Source of the DNA: Patescibacteria group bacterium
Lineage (GTDB): Bacteria; Patescibacteriota; Patescibacteriia; UBA9570; JAHJKD01
DNA length: 60,525 nt
Direction of reading: 5' to 3'
Assembly: GCA_018822435.1 (NCBI GenBank)
Contig: JAHJKD010000021.1
Location: 1 to 60,525 of the forward strand
Position 1 is the first letter of the stretch. Every line of letters begins with the position of its first letter. The notes under the pieces were generated by a model. That model ran no database searches and had not been told where the DNA came from. It saw only the letters and a list, made by a program, of their open reading frames with translations. This document shows positions 2,068 through 60,525 of the stretch, in pieces. A program made the translations under genes and the position numbers.

Positions 2068-2448
2068 CTAGAGATTAATATATATTATTGAAAAGGCAGC
2101 TAAAGCCAAAAATATTTGGCAGAGAATAACTGTCACCATTAGAAAATAAGATATTACCTTTTCTTTCTTATAAATTATTAGGGAAATCACTAAATTAATC
2201 AAGAAAAAAATAAGACCGGATAATGGAATATAATACATCTCGAACCAGGGACCGATTAAATCAATTCCAAAATAAATGTTATAATGTAAATAGATGGGTT
2301 CCTCTTGAGGACGAATCCTCCAGAATAAAAATGCCCAAAGAGCTAAATTTAAACAAAGAGAAATTAAAAAAGAGATAAGCATGAACTTATCAGCAATCAA
2401 GCACTCCTGGAACGTTTTCTTTAAACGGTATGTAAAATTTGTAGCCAT
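2068..2448 (-). CDS. hypothetical small polytopic membrane protein
   Basis: 126-aa ORF with 3-4 hydrophobic helices, sitting 2 nt upstream of mraY. Its 5' end overlaps the divergent 2381..3973 ORF, so an internal start (ATG at 2382, MLISFLISL) is possible. Confidence 0.45.
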   Translation of the reverse strand: MATNFTYRLKKTFQECLIADKFMLISFLISLCLNLALWAFLFWRIRPQEEPIYLHYNIYFGIDLIGPWFEMYYIPLSGLIFFLINLVISLIIYKKEKVISYFLMVTVILCQIFLALAAFSIIYINL

Positions 2449-3973
2449 ATTAATCTTAATTGTAATGTTATGTTTGGAGATTTTTTCGGCTTATCAGGAA
2501 TCCCAGACATTGGATGAAGCGGCTCATTTATTGGCAGGCTATCAGTATTGGCAAGATTATTCCGTGGTATTAAACCCGGAACATCCACCGTTAATAAAAC
2601 AACTAGCGGCCTTGCCTTTATTGTTCATGGATCTGAACTATCCCTGGGAGGACCCAACTCAAATCATACAATGGCCTGACTCTGACGCGTTTTTATATGA
2701 GCTCGGAAATCCGGCTGATACCATGATTTTTTGGGGAAGATTGCCCATCATGCTGTTATCTTTGCTTTTAGGATGGTTCATTTTCAAATGGACAAGGCAA
2801 ATAGCAGGTAATTATTGGGCTATATTTGCGCTTATTTTGTTCGCATTTGACCCGAATATAATAGCACATTCCCGATATATTACAACAGATATAGGGGTTT
2901 CCTGCTTTATGTTCATGACAATGTATTTTTATTGGCGATTCTTTTTGACGGAAAAGATGAAAGACTTGATTTTTTTAAGCGTGGCTTTAGGATTTGCTAT
3001 GTTAAGCAAATTTAGCGCCCTTGTTATTGGTCCGGCCATGCTGATTATATTAGTGGCGGTTAAACACTTTAAGAAAAATATAAATTATTTGTGGTTAGTG
3101 CTAATCGGTACTTTGATCGTAGTTTCAATGATTACGGCATTTTACTATTTTGAACCGATTAAATATTTTGAAGGTTTTCAGATGGTTAATGAGCATAACA
3201 GTTATGGCCATGATTCTTATTTATTAGGTGAAAACGGGGAAGATGGCTGGTGGTATTATTTCTTGGTTGCTTTTGCTGTAAAAACTCCTGTTATTACGCT
3301 CGCTTTTTTTGCCGGCAGTTTATTGTATTTCTTTTTTTTCTGCATATCACTATTTAAAAAAGGAGAATTTAAAAAAAATAAAAAGACTTTACAAACTTTT
3401 TTATTTCTATTACTGCCAATAGGCGTTTATTTTGCTATTTCCATGACGAGTAAGATTAATCTTGGTGTAAGGCATTTATTGCCCATTTATCCTTTTGTAT
3501 TTGTATTTATAGCATATAGCTTCTCTCAAATTGGGGAAAAGATGCAGATGAAAATGCTAAAAAATTCTTTTAGTTGGTTAATATTTGCGGTACTACTAAT
3601 ATACATGGCTTCAGCTATTATTGTATTTCCCAATTATCTCTCTTACTTTAATGCTGGCGTGGGCGGTTCTGAAAATGGACTGGATTATTTAAGTGATTCA
3701 AATATTGACTGGGGCCAAGGCTTAAAAGCTATGGCAAAATATATGGAAGAAAATAATATTGATGAACCCATATACATGAATTATTTTGGCCGGGCATTCC
3801 CGGAATATTATGGCATTGAAGAACACGAATGGTGGGATGGCGAAAAAAAGGATCGATTAATCTTTATTTCAAGAAGCTATATTGTGGCCGAGGATAGTAC
3901 TGCTAAGTGGTTGTTAGACATTGAACCAAAAGATGTAATTGCAGAATCAATAGAAGTTTATGACTTCCGGTAG
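2381..3973 (+). CDS. GT-C fold, PMT_2/ArnT-like lipid-carrier-dependent glycosyltransferase
   Basis: 530 aa with many TM helices. It has an acidic DEAAH motif in the first extracytoplasmic loop, GWWYYF, and a C-terminal soluble domain. This resembles the GT39/GT83-type dolichyl/undecaprenyl-phosphate-sugar transferases. The exact start is uncertain because the 5' end overlaps the divergent neighbour. Confidence 0.75.
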   Translation: MNLSAIKHSWNVFFKRYVKFVAILILIVMLCLEIFSAYQESQTLDEAAHLLAGYQYWQDYSVVLNPEHPPLIKQLAALPLLFMDLNYPWEDPTQIIQWPDSDAFLYELGNPADTMIFWGRLPIMLLSLLLGWFIFKWTRQIAGNYWAIFALILFAFDPNIIAHSRYITTDIGVSCFMFMTMYFYWRFFLTEKMKDLIFLSVALGFAMLSKFSALVIGPAMLIILVAVKHFKKNINYLWLVLIGTLIVVSMITAFYYFEPIKYFEGFQMVNEHNSYGHDSYLLGENGEDGWWYYFLVAFAVKTPVITLAFFAGSLLYFFFFCISLFKKGEFKKNKKTLQTFLFLLLPIGVYFAISMTSKINLGVRHLLPIYPFVFVFIAYSFSQIGEKMQMKMLKNSFSWLIFAVLLIYMASAIIVFPNYLSYFNAGVGGSENGLDYLSDSNIDWGQGLKAMAKYMEENNIDEPIYMNYFGRAFPEYYGIEEHEWWDGEKKDRLIFISRSYIVAEDSTAKWLLDIEPKDVIAESIEVYDFR

Positions 3974-5212: not shown

Positions 5213-5485
5213 ATGGCACACACAAAAGCAGGCGGATCAACACAGCTCGGACGAGATTCACGTTCACAAAGATTAGGCGTGAAAGTTTTTGGCGGTCAAA
5301 GAATTGGTGCTGGTGAAATCATCATCAGACAAAGAGGTACAAAGTTCAGGCCTGGTAAAAACGTGGAACGCGGTGAAGATGATACTTTGTATGCAAAAGT
5401 TGGCGGGATCGTTGATTTCACGGAAAAGAAAATAAAGAAATTTGACGGTAGCCTCAAGAGCGCAAAATTTGTTTCCGTTGTATAA
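5213..5485 (+). CDS. rpmA: 50S ribosomal protein L27
   Basis: 90 aa starting [29 protein letters not shown]...[10 protein letters not shown], the canonical L27 sequence. There is no N-terminal propeptide and no adjacent rplU. Confidence 0.95.
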
Positions 5486-5495
5486 CTTAAATCCA

Positions 5496-5553
5496 TGAAA
5501 GCGGACATCACATGTCCGCCATAAAGAAAGCGGATGTAGTGACATCCGCTTTC
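5496..5553. repeat. twin-hairpin GC-rich repeat, copy 1 (GAAAGCGGA family)
   Basis: The left arm is TGAAAGCGGACATCACATGTCCGCC (5496-5520). The right arm is GAAAGCGGATGTAGTGACATCCGCTTTC (5526-5553). Each arm is a perfect hairpin. Related copies lie at 48433-48510, 52707-52772 and 56016-56080. Confidence 0.85.
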
Positions 5554-5559
5554 TTTTTT
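5526..5559 (+). terminator. rho-independent terminator for rpmA, formed by the right arm of repeat copy 1
   Basis: 12-bp stem GAAAGCGGATGT/ACATCCGCTTTC with loop AGTG, followed by a T6 run (5554-5559). It sits between the convergent rpmA and pyrG genes. Confidence 0.7.
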
Positions 5560-7216
5560 ATTTCTTTCTTGATTTTTTTACTTTTTTCTTTTCTTGTTTA
5601 ACCATAGTTTCCACCCATTTCACGTATAAAGGGTGTGGATCTAGCGGTCTTGATTTAAATTCCGGATGGAATTGTACGCCTACGAAGAAAGGATGGCTCT
5701 TGAATTCAATTATTTCAACTAAATCCTGTTGGGTATTAACCCCGGAAAATACAACTCCGGCTTTTTCTAGTTTTTGGCGATACTTATTATTAAATTCATA
5801 TCTGTGTCGGTGACGTTCTGAAATAGAGGGTTTACCATAAGCAGAATAAGCGATCGTGTCCTTGGAAAGCTTGCAAGGATAAGCGCCTAGACGCATAGTA
5901 CCGCCATATTTATTTTCCAGAATATTTTTAGTCTGAAAAGGATTAACGTGAATAATCGGATGCTTTGTTTTCGGATTGATTTCCATGGTATTGGCTCCGG
6001 TTAGTTTGGCAACGTTGCGGGCGATCTCAATCGAAGCCAGTTGCATGCCGTAACAAAGTCCTAAATAAGGAATATTATTTTCACGGACATACTTGATGGC
6101 TTTGATGATGCCTTCAATGCCGCGGGAACCGAATCCACCCGGAACGATAATGCCGTCATATTGAGAAAGCTCATTTATTTTAATTGGAGTTTTTTCATAT
6201 TCTTCAGAATCAACCCAAACCATCTCTGGTACACGGTTATTAGCCCAGCAAGCATGCTTAACAGCCTCTAGGACTGATATATAAGAGTCTGCAATGGTAA
6301 AGTCGCCTGTGCCAAAGTATTTTCCAACCACGGCAATTTTGAGCGGTTTTTTTGCTTTCTTAATACTGCTGACCATCTTGCGCCAATCATTAATATCCTG
6401 TTTTTTTGGTTTTAAGTTTAATTTAGCGAGGATTTTTTCTCCTAAATTTTCTTTATCAAATAATAATGGAATTTCATAGATAGAATCAGCGTCAGGCGCG
6501 GAAATGGCGTTGTCTGGATCAATGCCGCAAAAAGTGGCTAATTTTTCCCGACGTTTATTATCTAATTTCTGTTCTGAGCGAGCGACTATAAAATCAGCCT
6601 GGATGCCAGCGGAATTCAATTCTCTGGCCGCATGCTGGGTCGGCTTTGTTTTCATCTCACCGACTCGGTTCGGAATAGGCAGATAACTTACTAATACAAA
6701 GGCAACATCGCCAGGATGTTTTAATTTTAAGCGGCGCGCAGCTTCTAAGAACAGAATATTCTGGTATTCTCCAACTGTACCGCCAATTTCTATAATGACA
6801 ATATCTGCTTTGTCTTTGGCTCCAGCTTTTTCAATGCGGCGATTTATTTCATTGGGGATATGAGGGACGACTTCAACACATTTGCCTTTATATTCTAGGT
6901 TTCTTTCTTTTTGAATAACGTCTAAATAAACTCGGCCGGTGGTCATGTAATTGACGGAATAAATGTTCTTATTTAAAAATCTTTCGTAATTTCCGATATC
7001 CTGATCAGTTTCGTCCTTGTCTTCGGTAACGAAAACTTCGCCGTGTTCGGTCGGGTTCATGGTTCCGGCGTCTACATTTATATAAGGATCAGCCTTAATG
7101 GCAGTAACATTATATCCTTTACTAACAAGTAGCCTGCCAATAGACGAGGCGGTAACGCCTTTTCCCACGGAAGACATAACTCCACCAACAATAAAAATAT
7201 ATTTTCTATTTTTCAT
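5558..7216 (-). CDS. pyrG: CTP synthase
   Basis: 552 aa. N-terminal synthetase motif GGVMSSVGKG, glutaminase Cys in GLCYGMQ, and the HPEF motif (VQFHPEFKSRP). Confidence 0.95.
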   Translation of the reverse strand: MKNRKYIFIVGGVMSSVGKGVTASSIGRLLVSKGYNVTAIKADPYINVDAGTMNPTEHGEVFVTEDKDETDQDIGNYERFLNKNIYSVNYMTTGRVYLDVIQKERNLEYKGKCVEVVPHIPNEINRRIEKAGAKDKADIVIIEIGGTVGEYQNILFLEAARRLKLKHPGDVAFVLVSYLPIPNRVGEMKTKPTQHAARELNSAGIQADFIVARSEQKLDNKRREKLATFCGIDPDNAISAPDADSIYEIPLLFDKENLGEKILAKLNLKPKKQDINDWRKMVSSIKKAKKPLKIAVVGKYFGTGDFTIADSYISVLEAVKHACWANNRVPEMVWVDSEEYEKTPIKINELSQYDGIIVPGGFGSRGIEGIIKAIKYVRENNIPYLGLCYGMQLASIEIARNVAKLTGANTMEINPKTKHPIIHVNPFQTKNILENKYGGTMRLGAYPCKLSKDTIAYSAYGKPSISERHRHRYEFNNKYRQKLEKAGVVFSGVNTQQDLVEIIEFKSHPFFVGVQFHPEFKSRPLDPHPLYVKWVETMVKQEKKKVKKSRKK

Positions 7217-18568: not shown

Positions 18569-18772
18569 TTATAGTTTTTTTTGCAATATTTGTAAACTGC
18601 CGAATATTAGGCCGCAAACCACAACTATCCACAATATAATATTTAAATTAAAAAAGTATTGAAAAAAGTTATTAGTCAGTCCATTAATCACTAAAAACAG
18701 CAAATAAAATATCAGGGAAATCGAAAATAAATCTTGGAAAATCCTGGTCATTTTTTGAATATTTTCTGCCAT
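18569..18772 (-). CDS. hypothetical small two-TM membrane protein
   Basis: 67-aa ORF with two hydrophobic helices. It overlaps the end of the upstream 460-aa ORF by 25 nt. Confidence 0.4.
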   Translation of the reverse strand: MAENIQKMTRIFQDLFSISLIFYLLFLVINGLTNNFFQYFFNLNIILWIVVVCGLIFGSLQILQKKL

Positions 18773-20130
18773 AAACTTGGTCTTTCTAGTTGAATATTTA
18801 TATTATGCACTATTATTTTTTCACTAACCTGATCCAGGCCTGGGGCCGACAAAACAAAATTAAGTTCTTTTCTGTCTCCAGGAACTCCTTCAAGATTAAA
18901 TTCAGACATAGCTGTTATCCTGTCTTTGCTCTCTTCGGGGGATTGATAATTACCGACAATTATATAATCAAAGCTATTGATATCAGAATAATATTTCAGC
19001 TTTTCGATATTCGCATCGGGATTAAAGAACATATCCTGATCAAGGGCAAAATATCCGTCGCCGATTATTTCCAGATTGCCTTCAGGCAAAATAATATTTT
19101 TTTCTTCATTGTCTCTCCAGTTAAAAAGCTTCATGACTTTATTCAGGACCAGATCCTGATCGTTAATCTGAATGGTCTGGAGTCCGGAAGCGATCCAGGG
19201 ACGGAAATTTACATCAACGCTATTGGTGAATAATTCTACATCTTCAGAGTCAGCCGGATAGATCTTGTTTTTCAGGACCATTTTTTGCAAATTGGTCTTA
19301 AGATGGTCTATTTTGGTATTTTCACTAGCCGTGATAGATACGCTGACCATGCCCGGACCCAGGCCGACCAGATCCATCTCTTTGGCATTTTCCTGAAATG
19401 ATTCATTGACCAGTTCCACTCCGCCTTTTTTGACCTTGAGGTTTATGGGGCTGGTATCACCTTGTTCATCTATATGGCGAAAATTGAATTGCAAATAGGC
19501 ATCTTCGCCTTCGCTCAGATAAAATACAAATTCGTGCGTGCCAATCAGACCTAATGGAATTTCTTTTACTTGGTCTGACGGCACATAATCATTAATATTA
19601 ATTTTTGGATTGAGATTATAATGATATGTGCCGATCTTACCGTCGGTGGGCAGATTTTTTTCAAAATCCCCGATAGTTTCAAATTTATTTTCTTTTTGGT
19701 AAAGAGCGCGGCCGTCTTCTTCTATTATATTCCAGTCCAGATTATCAAGGGCTTTAAATTCAAACGGTTTTAATTCAAAATTGCCTTCTCCGTATTTTTC
19801 TATGCCTAATTCAACTAATGATTGTTCTGGATTTGTGTATTCTATTGTGACCAGGGCGGAATCATAAGATCGCGGTACTTGCGCCGTAAAATAAACCGGA
19901 TCAGCCAAAACGCGCTGGTAATATTCATTGCTGCTTAAATTGTGTTCCCTGCCCCAAACGCGGCCGGACGGCTCTAATTCAGAGATGTAAGTTGCTTTAT
20001 GAGAAAAATCGTAGTTAGCGGTGAATGACCCGCCGATAGCAAAGTATCGGTATAAAAAAGTAATCAGGATTAATAAAAATATTCCTATAATAATTACTTT
20101 GATAATATTTCTAATAGAATTAAATTTCAT
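18748..20130 (-). CDS. hypothetical N-terminally anchored extracytoplasmic protein (paralog A)
   Basis: 460 aa with a single N-terminal TM helix (VIIIGIFLLILITFLY) and a large beta-rich ectodomain. It is a distant paralog of the adjacent 480-aa ORF. Confidence 0.6.
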   Translation of the reverse strand: MKFNSIRNIIKVIIIGIFLLILITFLYRYFAIGGSFTANYDFSHKATYISELEPSGRVWGREHNLSSNEYYQRVLADPVYFTAQVPRSYDSALVTIEYTNPEQSLVELGIEKYGEGNFELKPFEFKALDNLDWNIIEEDGRALYQKENKFETIGDFEKNLPTDGKIGTYHYNLNPKININDYVPSDQVKEIPLGLIGTHEFVFYLSEGEDAYLQFNFRHIDEQGDTSPINLKVKKGGVELVNESFQENAKEMDLVGLGPGMVSVSITASENTKIDHLKTNLQKMVLKNKIYPADSEDVELFTNSVDVNFRPWIASGLQTIQINDQDLVLNKVMKLFNWRDNEEKNIILPEGNLEIIGDGYFALDQDMFFNPDANIEKLKYYSDINSFDYIIVGNYQSPEESKDRITAMSEFNLEGVPGDRKELNFVLSAPGLDQVSEKIIVHNINIQLERPSLWQKIFKK

Positions 20131-48432: not shown

Positions 48433-48510
48433 TGAAAGCGGATTTCACAAATCCGCCTATATGAACCCGTCTGCCAAAGCACGTATGGCGGACATGTGAT
48501 GTCCGCTTTC
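48433..48510. repeat. twin-hairpin GC-rich repeat, copy 2
   Basis: The left arm is TGAAAGCGGATTTCACAAATCCGCC (48433-48457). A 29-nt spacer follows, then the right arm GGCGGACATGTGATGTCCGCTTTC (48487-48510). It lies between two co-directional genes. Confidence 0.85.
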
Positions 48511-48534
48511 CATAAATATAATCAAATATAAAAT

Positions 48535-50132: not shown

Positions 50133-50819
50133 ATGAAATTTGAACGGCAGGAACCTAAAGGTAAAATTGATGTGGACATTACCCAGGGTGAAAAAGTCGG
50201 ATCCGGACATTTTGGGGATGTTTATTTAGTGGAAGGAAAAATTGGCAATCATAAAAAAGAATTTGTTATAAAAAGATATAAAGATGATCTTGGCGATAGT
50301 TTTGATTCCCTCATGGATGCCAAAAAAGCTTTTAGTAATCATAGCAAGGCAAAAAAAGCCGGCTTAAAAGTTTTTCCTACGTATAGGCTAAGTGAAGACA
50401 AAAATAGCATTTTAATGACCTCAGCTGCAGGTGAGGGGAAATATTGCCTGGCTATAACAATTGATGAGATTGATCGGAGCTATGTGGATTCTAAAGGTTT
50501 TGAAAATATTAAAGAAATTCCTAACTTTGAAGAACTGGCCAATAATATTTTTAAAGGAGCCGTAAAGGCAGCTGAAAATAATATTTTTCTCTATATGGAT
50601 TCTTATTTTTTTATGACTGGTGAAAATGAAGATGTTGATTATGTAATTGGAGATCTGGATCTTGTCTATGAAATGCCGGATGTCAAATCAGAGAATTTAA
50701 ATAAAGTAAATTTAAAAGCGGCCAAAAAGGCGCTGGATCAATTCCTGGCCACTTATACGGATTGCCGTGATAAATACAAACCTGAACTGGAAGAGATATT
50801 CTCAGCTTATTTAGAATAA
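50133..50819 (+). CDS. minimal protein-kinase-like fold protein (putative small-molecule kinase)
   Basis: 228 aa. Gly-rich loop GSGHFGDVY, a VAIK-like FVIKRY, and a DFG-like IGDLD. No HRD motif is present. Confidence 0.4.
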   Translation: MKFERQEPKGKIDVDITQGEKVGSGHFGDVYLVEGKIGNHKKEFVIKRYKDDLGDSFDSLMDAKKAFSNHSKAKKAGLKVFPTYRLSEDKNSILMTSAAGEGKYCLAITIDEIDRSYVDSKGFENIKEIPNFEELANNIFKGAVKAAENNIFLYMDSYFFMTGENEDVDYVIGDLDLVYEMPDVKSENLNKVNLKAAKKALDQFLATYTDCRDKYKPELEEIFSAYLE

Positions 50820-50824
50820 TAGCT

Positions 50825-50863
50825 AAAAACTATCCTGCCCCTTCAGGGGTAGGATAGTTTTTT
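50825..50863. terminator. bidirectional rho-independent terminator (hairpin family 2, intergenic copy)
   Basis: The order is A5, CTATCCTGCCCC, loop TTCA, GGGGTAGGATAG, T6. It lies between convergent genes ending at 50819 and 50878. Confidence 0.75.
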
Positions 50864-50877
50864 ATTTACAAAATAAA

Positions 50878-51552
50878 TTATTCTGCTTTAGATAATCTCC
50901 AAGCACTTAAAACCTGCTTGATAATAAGCGGTATACTGATCAGAATGATGAAGACCAGTAAATATATTTCAATGTTGAAGATAACAGCCAGAGAAACAGC
51001 ATAAATGGTGATGTCGACCGTGCCTAAATAAATTTTTTCCGTGATATAAAATTCAGCGGTCCGCGTGGTGGGCCAGCTGGATTTTTTGGCTTCGCGCAGA
51101 TAGCCGACCATCAGCCACAGAACCATGGCCGCGGCGCCAATAACAATGCCGAAAGTAAGGTGGGTTTCCGACCACCAGAGATAAGTCATGGCCGCGAACA
51201 TGAGCATTTCTTTGATGCGGTCGGAAATAGAATCAAACCAGGCCCCGAATTTGGAAGACATGTTCTTGATACGGGCAATCTCACCATCAGAGCAATCAAG
51301 AGCAAAACCGACCTGTAAGAGAACGACACCGAATAAACGCCACCAATAATAAGGCATCATGAAAAATACGGCCGCCAGGATCGTGATCATGAAGGACAGC
51401 ATGGAAACCTGATTCGGCGTAACGCGCGGATCCAGCTTCATCAGCCAGAAAGTGAACAAACGAGAAAGACGCCGCGTGAACAGCGTGGAAAATATGCTGT
51501 CGTGCGGTTTTTGATAGGCTTTGACGTCGCTAATCTTTTGGGGTAAGTTCAT
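50878..51552 (-). CDS. CDP-alcohol phosphatidyltransferase family protein (second copy)
   Basis: 224 aa, polytopic. The signature reads DCSDGEIARIKNMSSKFGAWFDSISD. Confidence 0.85.
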   Translation of the reverse strand: MNLPQKISDVKAYQKPHDSIFSTLFTRRLSRLFTFWLMKLDPRVTPNQVSMLSFMITILAAVFFMMPYYWWRLFGVVLLQVGFALDCSDGEIARIKNMSSKFGAWFDSISDRIKEMLMFAAMTYLWWSETHLTFGIVIGAAAMVLWLMVGYLREAKKSSWPTTRTAEFYITEKIYLGTVDITIYAVSLAVIFNIEIYLLVFIILISIPLIIKQVLSAWRLSKAE

Positions 51553-53359
51553 ATATTTTTACTTCATCTACCAGGTCAAACTGGTAAGAGCCGTATTCAT
51601 TTAAATTATAATTTTTATTTAAGAAATCATTGGTGACTGCTTGGGTGCCGGAATCCTGCCAGAAATAAATTGTATAACCTTCGTCCATTAATTTGTCCAT
51701 GAACTCCCTGACCTGATCATTGTCAAACACAAACTTTTCCTGTTCCATGGGCGTGCGCACTGTTTTTAAGCCCGTATGCGTTTCCATGGTTTCAGACAAA
51801 CCATATTGCCAGCGGCCACTAAACATGAGTATTGGCGGCAGACTGTCCTGCCCCTTTAGGGGTAGGACAGTCGAGCCAGCCGGGGCAGTCGAGCCAGCAT
51901 GCTCTTGATTAATACTATCACCTATCTCAATTAAGGTTAACAGGTCATTTTGAGAAATAGCCTTGTTTTTTAACACTTCTAATTCTATATTTTCTTTTAC
52001 CTCAGAATAAGCCGGAACATAGATGACCAGAATCGATAGGACCGCCAGAGCGCCCACCAGATACGATATGCGCTTGGATTTAAATAAAGATGGAATCAGT
52101 ACCGATAAAACCCAATACAAGCCAAAAGAGCCTAATATGGCCAAGGCAGGAAAGGCCACGATCATATACCGGGAATAAGGATTGATCCACATGCTGAAGA
52201 GAGCAAGAAAGCCAAGTACCCATAATGCCAGAAAGGCGGATAAAAATTTATTCTTGCGCCAGATAAAGATAATGCCGATTATGACGAGGATCATGAAATA
52301 AGGGATCCACGACATCCGGTTGTTCATGATATCCCAATAATGCTTCAGTCCCCCGTTTTCAGTTTTGAATTTTCCGCGGCTTTCGAAAATATTTAACGGG
52401 CTTAATGAAGTGACATGATCAATATTTGATACGACTACAGATCCGGAAGTGTCTTTTTTCTTGAAGGCCTCTTTGTTTGCAGAAATATCCACGGAGTTTT
52501 TGATAGTCAGGCCAAGGGGAATAATCATGAGGATGGCAAAAACCAGGAGCAAGCGCGATATTTGCATCGTGTTTATTTTCCGGGTTTTTTGCTTGTCCCA
52601 GAACAGACCGAACAAAACAAGATAAGCGGGTAAAAATGCGACTCCGGTATGGCGGATGTTTAAGCTAAAGCCTAAACATAAAATACTTAAAATAATTAAA
52701 GCAAGTTGAAAGCGGACGTCACTACGTCCGCCACCACCGGATGATAGGCGGATTTTGTGAAATCCGCTTTCAAATTGGTAAAAAGCCAGCAAAAATAAAT
52801 AAACAGAAAGAAGTATAAAAAACAATGAAGGGATCTCACGCATAGGCTGCGAAATCGCATAGTCATAGTATAAGCTTGAGAATCCGACAGTTATGGCCGC
52901 GAGCAAGCCAAATGCCCAGCCCCATTTTTTTATTTTAAGTGCTTTGAATAAAAGCTGACAAATTAAGAAGATTAATATTAAGTTCAAGGCGGCCAAAACC
53001 GGAACAACCGAATATATAGAAAGGTCGTTTCCAGTAATAGTTGCGGTCCAGTACATAATATAAGACAGGCCAACCGGATATATTGAAGACAGCCAGCCAT
53101 CCGGAGAAATTATTTCATGATGGGTCGGGGTAAGCCAGCGGGCCAGGCGCTCGTCGCCGAAATGTTCTATCCCCTTTTGGACGAGTTCATCCTGATAAAC
53201 CAAAGGCTCGCCCTGAAGCAGGCGTCCGGCCAAATACAAATAACCCGGACTGTCATCGCCCCAGGCGCCATATGCGTGGTTCTGCCAGTAGATCCAGCCG
53301 AAGCCCAGGCCTAAAATTAAAACAAGGATAATCGTAATTATCCAGGCGTACTTTTTCAT
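51530..53359 (-). CDS. GT-C fold polytopic glycosyltransferase-like protein carrying two in-frame repeat insertions
   Basis: 609 aa with GDDSPGYLYLAG in the first loop, more than 10 TM helices and a C-terminal soluble domain. It contains twin-hairpin repeat copy 4 (52707-52772) and a family-2 hairpin (51843-51870) without any frame disruption. Confidence 0.75.
   Translation of the reverse strand: MKKYAWIITIILVLILGLGFGWIYWQNHAYGAWGDDSPGYLYLAGRLLQGEPLVYQDELVQKGIEHFGDERLARWLTPTHHEIISPDGWLSSIYPVGLSYIMYWTATITGNDLSIYSVVPVLAALNLILIFLICQLLFKALKIKKWGWAFGLLAAITVGFSSLYYDYAISQPMREIPSLFFILLSVYLFLLAFYQFESGFHKIRLSSGGGGRSDVRFQLALIILSILCLGFSLNIRHTGVAFLPAYLVLFGLFWDKQKTRKINTMQISRLLLVFAILMIIPLGLTIKNSVDISANKEAFKKKDTSGSVVVSNIDHVTSLSPLNIFESRGKFKTENGGLKHYWDIMNNRMSWIPYFMILVIIGIIFIWRKNKFLSAFLALWVLGFLALFSMWINPYSRYMIVAFPALAILGSFGLYWVLSVLIPSLFKSKRISYLVGALAVLSILVIYVPAYSEVKENIELEVLKNKAISQNDLLTLIEIGDSINQEHAGSTAPAGSTVLPLKGQDSLPPILMFSGRWQYGLSETMETHTGLKTVRTPMEQEKFVFDNDQVREFMDKLMDEGYTIYFWQDSGTQAVTNDFLNKNYNLNEYGSYQFDLVDEVKIYELTPKD
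51843..51898. repeat. hairpin family 2, intragenic copy, plus an 18-nt tandem duplication
   Basis: CTGTCCTGCCCCTTTAGGGGTAGGACAG spans 51843-51870. CAGTCGAGCCAGC is repeated at 51868-51880 and 51886-51898. On the minus strand the region is translated as AGSTAPAGSTVLPLKGQDS. Confidence 0.8.
52707..52772. repeat. twin-hairpin GC-rich repeat, copy 4, inside a CDS (66 nt, in frame)
   Basis: The left arm TGAAAGCGGACGTCACTACGTCCGCC is followed by a 14-nt spacer and the right arm GGCGGATTTTGTGAAATCCGCTTTCA. On the minus strand it is translated as ESGFHKIRLSSGGGGRSDVRFQ. Confidence 0.85.
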
Positions 53360-56015: not shown

Positions 56016-56080
56016 TGAAAGCGGACATCACATGTCCGCCAACAGTTTTTTATAGGCGGATGTAGTGACATCCGCTTTCA
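56016..56080. repeat. twin-hairpin GC-rich repeat, copy 3 (divergent intergenic region)
   Basis: The left arm is TGAAAGCGGACATCACATGTCCGCC (56016-56040). A 14-nt spacer follows, then the right arm GGCGGATGTAGTGACATCCGCTTTCA (56055-56080). Both arms are identical to those of copy 1. Confidence 0.85.
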
Positions 56081-58518: not shown

Positions 58519-59832
58519 TTAATTAAGGGCACTATGAGATTTGTTGATTTTGGAAATAAGAATAATTACGCCCAGGCCGGCGAACAGGGCCAGCATAAGG
58601 GTGAAGAGGGTGAATTCCGGGACGCCTGGTTGGTCTTCCAGTCTTTCATCGGCACCAATGTCATAGGCCGGACCCTGGGGCCGGGAAAGGCCCTTGTGGT
58701 CAACCAGGACGCTGGCAATGGTCACTCCCTCGTCAATTGCCGGCGAACCGGCTGATAATCCCAAACCGTCAATTGTAGGATTTTCATATAAAGGATCCTG
58801 GTCAATGGAATTAACAGATTGGCCAGTTAATGTTTGCCAGTGAGCAAGAGAAGTGGCAGTTGTTCCAGCCCATCGGCCGATACTAGCTCCACCAGTTGCA
58901 TATATGTCGTTGTAATCAACCGTCATGGTGCCAGTTGAATTCCCATCAACTACAACCATTTCTCCCGCACCAGCATTGCGGTAGTGGGCATTATTCCGGT
59001 AATTAGTGTTTGAACACGGACCAGCAGCTGTACCAATCTCAATTCTGTTCTGATAAAAGGAATTATTCCAGATATTTACATTACTTGCTGTCGTATGGCA
59101 TGTCAGAGAGGGAAGAAAACTTTGCCCTTGCTGACCGAAATAAGTATTTTTTATGGTCACGTCATCCCAATTATCAATCGCCATGCCGGCTTCAAAATTG
59201 ACTTTGCTGTTTGTGGAAACCGTGCCCTTATTAATGGTTAAGCCGCTGGGATTATTGGTTGCAGGATCAAAAGCATATATTCCATAACCGTCATTATTTT
59301 TAACCTCAGGCCCGATTAAACTGACATCGAATGAACTGGCAATCTCAAAGCCGGCATTATCAGATTTATTAACAGATATGGTTTCCATGACAATGTCGCT
59401 GGCAGCCGCCCGGATCCATACCTCCCGCATAGTATGATCTTTTACTTCAAAATCCTGGATATATATATGATCAGCCGCAAATATTTCAATCCCTTCTTGT
59501 ACAGATCCTCCACCATTAATGACTGGCCTTACTTCACCGGGCCAGCGGATAATGCTTTTTCGATTGGCAGCACTGGCGCCCGAGTCTCCCGCACCAACAC
59601 TAAAGGCTGACAGATTTCCAGATGCCCAAATAGTGTCACTGGCAGTAACTGTTTGAGTCAAAGCATAATTAATTGAAGCGCAGGCGGATGAGGTGGATGC
59701 GCATGACTGGCAATTGCCGGCATCAGCCCCGCCCTGCCAAACGCAAAGAGTGGCTGCTTGAATTAATGTGGGGACAAGCAGTATAAATGCACAAATGAAA
59801 AATAATATTTTTTTTAGAGCGCTTTTTTTCAT
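58519..59832 (-). CDS. secreted parallel beta-helix protein with PEF-CTERM-like sorting tail
   Basis: 437 aa with a signal peptide (..FILLVPTLIQAATL) and a Cys-rich cap (NCQSCASTSSACASINYAL). It ends SRPQGPAYDIGADE...DQPGVPEFTLFTLMLALFAGLGVIILISKINKSHSALN. Confidence 0.8.
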   Translation of the reverse strand: MKKSALKKILFFICAFILLVPTLIQAATLCVWQGGADAGNCQSCASTSSACASINYALTQTVTASDTIWASGNLSAFSVGAGDSGASAANRKSIIRWPGEVRPVINGGGSVQEGIEIFAADHIYIQDFEVKDHTMREVWIRAAASDIVMETISVNKSDNAGFEIASSFDVSLIGPEVKNNDGYGIYAFDPATNNPSGLTINKGTVSTNSKVNFEAGMAIDNWDDVTIKNTYFGQQGQSFLPSLTCHTTASNVNIWNNSFYQNRIEIGTAAGPCSNTNYRNNAHYRNAGAGEMVVVDGNSTGTMTVDYNDIYATGGASIGRWAGTTATSLAHWQTLTGQSVNSIDQDPLYENPTIDGLGLSAGSPAIDEGVTIASVLVDHKGLSRPQGPAYDIGADERLEDQPGVPEFTLFTLMLALFAGLGVIILISKINKSHSALN

Positions 59833-59836
59833 CTTA

Positions 59837-60525
59837 CTAAATGTCTAGCGAACTTCTAATTATTCTATCTACCAATTCTTCAAAACCAATGCCGGCGGCT
59901 TTGGCTGCCTTCGGCAGCAGGCTTGTGCCGGTAAGTCCCGGTAATGTATTTACTTCTAAACAGAACGGTTCCAAGTTGTTGCTCAACCTAAAATCTATCC
60001 GTCCATACGCTCTGCAATCTACAGCTTTATAAGCAAGCAGCGCATCCTTCTGTAAATGCTCGACTACATCCGCCGGAAACTTTGCAGGAACTTCGTATTC
60101 GCTCATTCCGTGAGTATATTTACACTCGTAATCATAAAACGAGTGTTTCGGTTTTATTTCCAGAACCGGCAAACTTTCATTCCCTATTATCCCGACCGTG
60201 ATTTCATGTCCCGCGATAAATTCTTCGATCAACACTTTTTCAGAAAAGTTAAATGCGAGATTGACTGCACCTTCCAATTGCGTATCATTTTCACAAATTG
60301 TGAGACCGATTGCCGAACCTTGATCATTCGGTTTTACCACGCAAGGGAAACCGATATTTGTTTTGACATTAATAAGTAATCGCCGGTAATCACAATCTTT
60401 TTTATTTATTGAAATCCATTTCGGGGTATTTACATTAAAATGCTGCAGCAGCACTTTTGTATGTTCTTTATTCATTGAAATAGCGCTTGCTAAAATTCCT
60501 GACCCGGTATATCGTATTCCCTGAA
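59837..60525 (-). CDS. ddl: D-alanine--D-alanine ligase (N-terminus runs off the window end)
   Basis: The frame stays open upstream of the track Met at 60475. My translation reads ..QGIRYTGSGILASAISMNKEHTKVLL.., which matches the conserved Ddl GIPY.GSG.L.SA..MDK block. The ATP-grasp C-terminus (EVNTLPGLT) is present. Confidence 0.9.
   Translation of the reverse strand, partial: QGIRYTGSGILASAISMNKEHTKVLLQHFNVNTPKWISINKKDCDYRRLLINVKTNIGFPCVVKPNDQGSAIGLTICENDTQLEGAVNLAFNFSEKVLIEEFIAGHEITVGIIGNESLPVLEIKPKHSFYDYECKYTHGMSEYEVPAKFPADVVEHLQKDALLAYKAVDCRAYGRIDFRLSNNLEPFCLEVNTLPGLTGTSLLPKAAKAAGIGFEELVDRIIRSSLDI

Follow-up and report, generated by a model that had tools for sequence, protein, structure and literature searches.

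Repetitive extragenic palindromes (REPs) may lie wholly within open reading frames (ORFs), and dimers or groups of units that encode 20–30 amino acids make up over half of these inserts (Di Nocera et al., 2013; PMC3733652). Intragenic REPs occur in several bacteria, some genes have been hit twice, and the families typically show genome-specific sequence variants (PMC3733652). Two of the Rickettsia palindromic elements (RPEs), RPE-4 and RPE-6, belong to the CGTC-type REPs (PMC3733652); classical RPE-1-type elements are approximately 100–150 bp long (PMC10969869). A review of MITEs (transposable elements of the miniature inverted-repeat type) describes in-frame MITE fusions as ‘not unusual’, with RPEs as the extreme case (PMC10969869). 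Here we describe a palindromic element of 66 nt at positions 52707–52772 of a 60,525-nt contig (JAHJKD010000021.1, hereafter the window) from a Patescibacteria group bacterium, where it is read in frame within the gene of a GT-C-fold membrane glycosyltransferase. A preliminary account of the window, the sequence-only reading, had regarded in-frame palindromes as a Rickettsia hallmark that is otherwise rare. That generalization does not hold, given the in-frame REPs known from several bacteria (PMC3733652) and the MITE fusions (PMC10969869); in-frame insertion of REP-type elements is already known and is not especially rare. A search of the literature on the Candidate Phyla Radiation (CPR) or the Patescibacteria for palindromes, REPs or in-frame insertions found no relevant report, and the present case appears to be the first in-frame palindrome reported in the CPR.

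The element very probably belongs to a short interspersed REP-type palindromic family and has the ‘head-head heterodimer’ arrangement seen in REP doublets forming hairpins (REPINs) and bacterial interspersed mosaic elements (BIMEs). Its sequence, TGAAAGCGG...CCGCTTTCA (full letters TGAAAGCGGACGTCACTACGTCCGCCACCACCGGATGATAGGCGGATTTTGTGAAATCCGCTTTCA; by parts TGAAAGCGGACGTCACTACGTCCGCC-ACCACCGGATGATA-GGCGGATTTTGTGAAATCCGCTTTCA), consists of two inverted hairpins with an 8-bp stem each. Arm 1 (52707–52733, plus strand) is a TGAAAG tag followed by the hairpin GCGGACGT-CACT-ACGTCCGC, and arm 2 (52746–52772, inverted, minus strand) is the same tag followed by GCGGATTT-CACA-AAATCCGC. A covariance model of the arm scores them at 42.9 and 43.2 bits, respectively, with E-values of about 1e-10. 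The segment folds with −39.4 kcal/mol as RNA (z = −7.9) and with −22 to −23 kcal/mol as DNA (z of about −6.5).

The palindrome lies within the minus-strand ORF 51530–53359 (609 amino acids), which reads through it without a stop as ESGFHKIRLSSGGGGRSDVRFQ; sequence and translation agree on this point with the earlier account. Its description of the insert as 22 codons stands in part. The length and the peptide are right, but the sense codons E197–Q218, which run from 52771 down to 52706, also cover 66 nt and are offset from the palindrome by 1 nt, and the net gain amounts to 16 codons. Three of the six frames through the element are open. The frame in use (GAA AGC GGA...) sidesteps the TGA of the tag. 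Another copy in the window (copy D, below) would meet a TAA in its spacer if read in the same frame. Across the element junctions the encoded peptides are IRLSSGGGGR and SDVRFQLALIILSILCLGFSLNIR.

The element is not alone. Counting copies in the window only, we find the 9-mer GAAAGCGGA nine times against an expectation of 0.53, a roughly 17-fold excess, and none of 100 shuffled sequences contained nine or more. The window has four elements with eight arms (A, B, C and D, the in-ORF element being copy C), in which every stem is perfect. The unit of the family is a (T)GAAAG tag, an 8-bp stem GCGGAyNT, a loop CAC or CACN, the complementary stem and then C(C). Each element contains two such units in inverted orientation with the tags facing outwards, separated by spacers of 5 (A), 29 (B), 14 (C) and 14 nt (D). 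The paired arms differ in stem or loop, which makes the elements heterodimers. Folding gives a single long hairpin for each of copies B, C and D, and two hairpins for copy A. The stems also covary. In an alignment of 13 arms (12 distinct), comprising the eight from the window, four from the related contig L001 and one from a more distant relative, L008, all 96 pair cells across the 12 distinct arms are Watson-Crick; the window arms were located by the tag motif alone, and those from L001 and L008 by a perfect-stem search. At four of the eight stem positions, all variation is compensatory and affects both sides of the pair (15 cells; 0 of 500 shuffles).

The family is mainly extragenic, as three of the four window copies are intergenic and copy C alone lies in a gene. 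Copy A (5496–5554) sits between the convergent genes rpmA (approximately 5213–5485, plus strand) and CTP synthase (5558–7216, minus strand), 10 and 3 nt from their stops. Copy B (48433–48511) begins 4 nt past the stop of a CDP-alcohol phosphatidyltransferase (CDP-OH transferase) gene, upstream of a phosphodiesterase gene. Copy D (56016–56080) lies between divergent genes for a GT4 glycosyltransferase and the exosortase EpsH and overlaps the called GT4 start. The GC content of the window is 38%. A scan of the window with the covariance model (R1) gave no further convincing copy, and no Rfam family matched anywhere in it. The terminator scan did not call the REP copies canonical intrinsic terminators, because they have no T-run. 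One weak R1 match at 19475–19513 on the minus strand (16 bits, E = 0.016, with a 21-nt loop and one mismatch) was judged to be chance. This match, GAAGGCGAAGAT...ATTTTCGCC, lies inside the ORF 18748–20130 and could be a decayed unit.

Comparison with orthologs indicates that copy C was gained in the lineage of the window. Neither the peptide nor the nucleotide repeat is present at this site in the two closest orthologs, P0002 (78% amino acid identity) and P0003 (68%), and in neither of them did we find the 22 residues encoded without a repeat. At the insertion site they have a short basic loop, Y-N-L-K-K-G-W-F-I in P0002 and F-N-T-K-K-Y-W-F-M in P0003. P0002 is encoded on L001, which is syntenic with the window and shares the order GT4, GT-C, CDP-OH transferase and phosphodiesterase. 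Alignment of the two DNA sequences shows a loss of 2 nt followed by a gain of 50 nt in the window, a net change of +48 nt or 16 codons. On this alignment, about six ancestral residues (approximately 18 nt) are replaced by the element, rather than 22 residues being cleanly added. Both junctions overlap the ancestral-type sequence: they share AATTTGAAA with it on the left, where the frame is shifted, and TTT on the right. Since the element termini TTGAAAG and CTTTCAA overlap the target sequence, the exact boundaries cannot be assigned. An insertion specific to this lineage had been proposed with clean boundaries: the first part is borne out by P0002 and P0003, the second is not.

The same contig shows that the family is older than this insertion, because L001 has variants at two orthologous intergenic sites. 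At L001 1143–1172, the site orthologous to copy D, there is a single GAAGG-tagged hairpin. The counterpart of copy B at L001 6270–6327 is a GAAGG-tagged dimer with the arm order flipped, and the TGA of its tag TGAAGG terminates the CDP-OH transferase gene. Tag and loop variants are specific to each genome, the loop being CAC in the window and CCA in L001. Judged from these orthologous sites, the family predates the split from L001, the nearest sampled relative.

Several observations weigh against assigning the family to the REPs. The tag, (T)GAAAG here and GAAGG in L001, differs from the GTAG or CGTC of the REP superfamilies. No direct duplication of a target site was seen flanking the four window copies, and a Y1/HUH (Y1_Tnp-type) transposase had no match in the 23 window ORFs scanned. 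The junctions of copy C are unclean, and their sequence is indicative of an insertion history of more than one step or of microhomology. Finally, the arm pattern GAAAGCGGAYNTCACN{0,1}ANRTCCGCC gave one match in the GTDB representative genomes and one in the JGI metagenomes, both taken as chance: a Brevibacterium contig, and VFQM01, where the arm has no inverted partner. The scan of GTDB representatives did not recover the source genome itself. The arm pattern was too narrow, since L001 carries the GAAGG variant. A protein search with the concatenated REP-encoded peptides returned nothing at E ≤ 10, not even the host protein, and is insensitive for matches of 20 amino acids. No related insertion sequence (IS) was found within the window.

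The host gene (51530–53359, minus strand) encodes a 609-amino-acid protein, P0001, with a DD motif (D35/D36) in its first external loop. Pfam gave no match on P0001 itself. Relatives match PF13231 or PF02366 (PMT_2/PMT), and the GT-C assignment made from the sequence, which therefore rests on relatives and fold, is supported by structure prediction. An AlphaFold2 model based on an alignment of 72 sequences has a mean predicted local distance difference test score (pLDDT) of 92.4 and a predicted template modelling score of 0.94, with low confidence only at two inserts. It contains 13 helices of transmembrane (TM) length and a mixed alpha/beta C-terminal domain. Foldseek comparison with the PDB retrieves AglB, PglB, STT3 and ArnT (E = 2.7e-9 to 4e-7, probability 1.00). 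All 35 invariant columns of the 72-sequence alignment are kept in P0001, including D36, R174, R236 and H315; D35 is nearly invariant.

In the model, copy C falls in a loop (residues 198–212) between two predicted TM helices, 175–197 and 213–235, in agreement with the idea that the insert occupies a loop. The block 201–210 has a mean pLDDT of 49, and the model places the final six inserted residues, SDVRFQ, in the following helix, which they lengthen at its N terminus. The loop is probably cytoplasmic, between TM4 and TM5. This topology, which counts 13 membrane helices by taking the short helix 97–109 as part of an external loop, was derived by hand from the positive-inside rule, taking the N terminus as internal and the C-terminal domain as external. 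With this orientation, the K-rich stretches at 141–146 and 254–259 and the ancestral loop lie on the same side as the insert, and all conserved motifs lie on the outer side. Based on the alignments and the model, P0001 in all likelihood carries a tolerated loop of 22 residues that is rich in Gly, Ser and Arg.

These observations are best explained as follows. One dimer probably entered the GT-C coding sequence in the lineage of the window only, replacing about 18 nt that encoded the Lys-rich loop N-L-K-K-G-W-F and adding 48 nt net. The insertion most likely survived for three reasons: the net length is divisible by three; the frame GAA AGC GGA... escapes the TGA of the tag, and the spacer of copy C is free of stops; and the loop is variable in length, probably cytoplasmic, placed between TM helices and away from the externally facing catalytic residues. 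Selection probably acts as a filter that keeps only stop-free insertions of a multiple of three in tolerant loops. As to mobility, a RAYT-like (REP-associated tyrosine transposase) single-strand transposase or recombination at microhomology could have moved the element.

Copy C is one of at least five in-frame palindromes in this ortholog group, four of which related orthologs demonstrably lack; the fifth, in P0008, is judged from the protein alignment only. P0001 itself has a second, which belongs to an unrelated family: a hairpin with a 14-bp stem at 51841–51872 (z = −7 to −8) within an extra segment of 18 codons. The segment, at approximately 51845–51898 (residues ~488–505), adds the 18 residues AGSTAPAGSTVLPLKGQD, has low pLDDT and includes a 13-nt tandem duplication (GCTGGCTCGACTG twice). 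P0004 (L008/L009; 59% identity to P0001, genome GCA_043816085.1), from the same sample as L004, one of the contigs that also carry the window sequence, has a single REP-like unit, TGAAAGCGAAAATCGATATTTTCGCC, with stem GCGAAAAT, in the same loop as copy C; it lies at L008 676–702, encodes TESENRYFRL and reaches 37 bits with R1. P0010 (L010) has a different GC-rich hairpin in that loop (residues ~193–209) in a gene of 31% GC. In P0008 (L011), a perfect 28-nt palindrome, GTAGAGACATGCCATGGCATGTCTCTAC, is read as VETCHGMSLQ in the next loop (residues ~248–257). We also considered the loop insert ‘SRQAAAKQEASIR’ of P0044 and rejected it, as it contains no palindrome and its host genome is GC-rich. 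We infer that the gains in P0001 and P0004 were independent, because the K-rich loops of P0002 and P0003 are homologous and more distant members also have K-rich loops.

The second hairpin of P0001 has an intergenic twin at 50828–50859 on the plus strand, from which it differs by a compensatory stem change. The twin is followed by a T-run, is terminator-like and stands after the gene 50133–50819. That gene (228 amino acids), located between the phosphodiesterase and CDP-OH transferase genes, has no significant Pfam match beyond a spurious KNOX2; it is absent from the syntenic L001 and looks like a lineage-specific gene insertion.

The recurrence raises the question of whether the elements are directed to these loops. 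There could be a class of GAAAG-tagged REP-like hairpins in Patescibacteria, undescribed so far, whose insertion preference steers it into positively charged cytoplasmic loops; we regard this as a tentative proposal that is more likely wrong than right by a good way. The preference may be for GAAA/AAAG-rich DNA, which amounts to Lys and Glu codons, and the same loops in the envelope proteins of these small genomes would then undergo remodelling again and again. In keeping with this, P0001 and P0004, from two co-occurring lineages, would each have gained the family independently in one and the same loop, and the ancestral target AATTTGAAAAAG overlaps the element terminus TTGAAAG. In a stronger version, the hairpin may be retained as a co-translational pause between TM segments.

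A related explanation is that the hairpin is kept for a role in mRNA or DNA, such as a translational pause between TM segments, a binding site for an RNase or another protein, or an internal regulatory structure, and is thus selected rather than merely tolerated as a selfish insert. Both in-ORF arms have perfect 8-bp stems despite compensatory changes and one extra loop base relative to the other copies, P0004 has a REP-like hairpin of the same design in the same loop at 59% amino acid identity, and P0010 has another GC-rich hairpin there. However, perfect stems are also expected of a young copy or of a copy from a different master, the two closest orthologs do without it, and a tolerant loop together with abundant hairpin elements explains the recurrence equally well. 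We therefore consider a selected hairpin unlikely.

The possibility that the gene is a recently inactivated pseudogene, in which one or both inserts abolished function and the frame is open only for want of time, had been raised at the outset, and we consider it quite unlikely. The ratio of nonsynonymous to synonymous substitution (dN/dS) against L001 is approximately 0.05 for the gene as a whole, 0.04 for the stretch upstream of the insert and 0.09 for the C-terminal part; for residues 219–488, just downstream of the insert, dS is saturated and the ratio is not computable. The neighbouring CDP-OH transferase gene has a dN/dS of 0.07. Together with the preserved invariant residues and the high-confidence fold, these values argue against a pseudogene. 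So does the gene's place in a conserved operon, where it overlaps the downstream CDP-alcohol phosphatidyltransferase gene as in relatives. The two independent inserts are both in frame, free of stops and confined to the only two low-confidence, length-variable loops, and at least three other sequencing runs yielded the same allele. In favor of inactivation, a stable hairpin of about 30 bp in the mRNA could impair expression. Moreover, all available copies are 100% identical, with no presence/absence polymorphism of the insert among the assemblies, so that selection since the insertion is not measurable. From sequence and model, the enzyme nevertheless appears intact and the gene under purifying selection, in line with the earlier view that the insert did not destroy the membrane enzyme; the protein would be made and active.

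Membership in the RPE families is very unlikely. As with RPE-1 to RPE-10 (Ogata et al., 2000, 2002), an in-frame palindrome in a housekeeping or envelope gene adds a hydrophilic, fold-compatible segment, here a surface loop; a single gene may receive two such inserts, and RPE-4 and RPE-6 count as REP-type repeats (PMC3733652). Against this stand the host, a Patescibacteria lineage by the names of homologs, a length of 66 nt compared with about 100–150 bp (PMC10969869), and a GAAAG tag in place of CGTC. RPE-1-type elements encode a conserved peptide and have a large intragenic share, compared with one of four copies in the window; the phylum is unrelated, and the sequence appears to be so as well. 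Beyond the two matches given above, scans of two large collections did not show the exact arm pattern.

An assembly or chimera artefact is hardly credible: family repeats do break assemblies, but the reading frame is kept and the sequence through copy C is identical in the window and in three independent Logan assemblies from different runs, which excludes the artefact that the earlier account had named as a possible refutation. Logan contigs from SRR27458548, SRR2540949 and SRR2544004, each 100% identical to the window over 5.4–11.4 kb, encode exactly the 609-amino-acid protein, and the metagenome-assembled genome GCA_018825215.1 (JAHJES01) carries 100% identical sequence. All three of these Logan contigs (L004, L005 and L006) end exactly at window position 48433, the outer edge of copy B, which suggests a copy number of the repeat high enough to interrupt short-read assembly. 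Elsewhere, the contig from SRR27458548 matches the window at 100% identity up to 59814 and is wholly different beyond it (window 59814–60525 compared with L004 1–3545). L004 there has Laminin_G_3 and other genes where the window has a D-Ala-D-Ala ligase fragment; the junction is either strain-variable or a chimeric join in one assembly.

The repeats also affect gene calling. Gene callers place ORF starts inside them; the sites concerned are 56026–56028 in the window and 1136, 6311 and ~6324–6327 in L001, where a TGAAGG tag also provides a stop codon, as noted above. The GT4 gene accordingly starts with ‘MSAFKKY-MKIFYITTT’ in the window and ‘MGMKAGLAKPAFKNDF-MNIFYITTT’ in L001, and the L001 phosphodiesterase is called with 16 extra N-terminal residues. 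The contig as a whole is rich in envelope glycosylation genes (GT2, GT4, NTP transferases and Polysacc_synt), and a second GT-C-type gene at 2381–3973 (530 amino acids) has PMT/PMT_2 in the precomputed annotation of identical contigs.

These findings extend protein-coding palindromes to the CPR, whose small genomes are AT-rich, so that GC-rich hairpins are conspicuous and metagenome assemblies break at them. They also call for caution in annotation, as length differences of 16–34 amino acids between orthologs would here stem from selfish DNA and not from domain evolution. The GT-C ortholog group provides a compact natural experiment on insertion-tolerant loops. If RAYT proteins prove absent from these genomes, the question arises how REP-like elements spread without one.

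Among other known systems, GC clusters and related double-hairpin elements of fungal mitochondria are pairs of GC-rich hairpins in an AT-rich genome, sometimes in frame in protein genes; they differ from the window family in being organellar, unrelated in sequence and of another proposed mobility. Mobile terminator-like hairpins (SPRITE) resemble the second hairpin of the P0001 gene (51841–51872). MITEs such as Correia/NEMIS, ERIC, BOX and RUP are likewise small and non-autonomous with terminal inverted repeats, and can form in-frame fusions (PMC10969869). They differ in that neither a target-site duplication nor a parent IS is seen here, and in that the inverted repeats of the window family are hairpins, a REP-like trait.

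The closest resemblance is to REP/REPIN/BIME elements. Shared features are dispersed copies of a unit of about 25 nt, with a short conserved 5′ tag and a GC-rich imperfect-palindrome hairpin; the occurrence of singles and of inverted ‘head-head’ heterodimers with variable spacers; the position of most copies within 20 nt of gene 3′ ends; a tag that can supply the stop codon, as in the L001 CDP-OH transferase gene; a sequence variant proper to each genome; and occasional in-frame intragenic dimers of 20–30 amino acids. The described REP/REPIN cases are mobilised by RAYT Y1 transposases, and no RAYT is among the ORFs scanned here; the spacers of 5–29 nt are very short, and the host belongs to a small-genome Patescibacteria lineage. 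Judged from its sequence, the element in the glycosyltransferase gene is a better fit to a REP dimer than to an RPE, both in size and in architecture.

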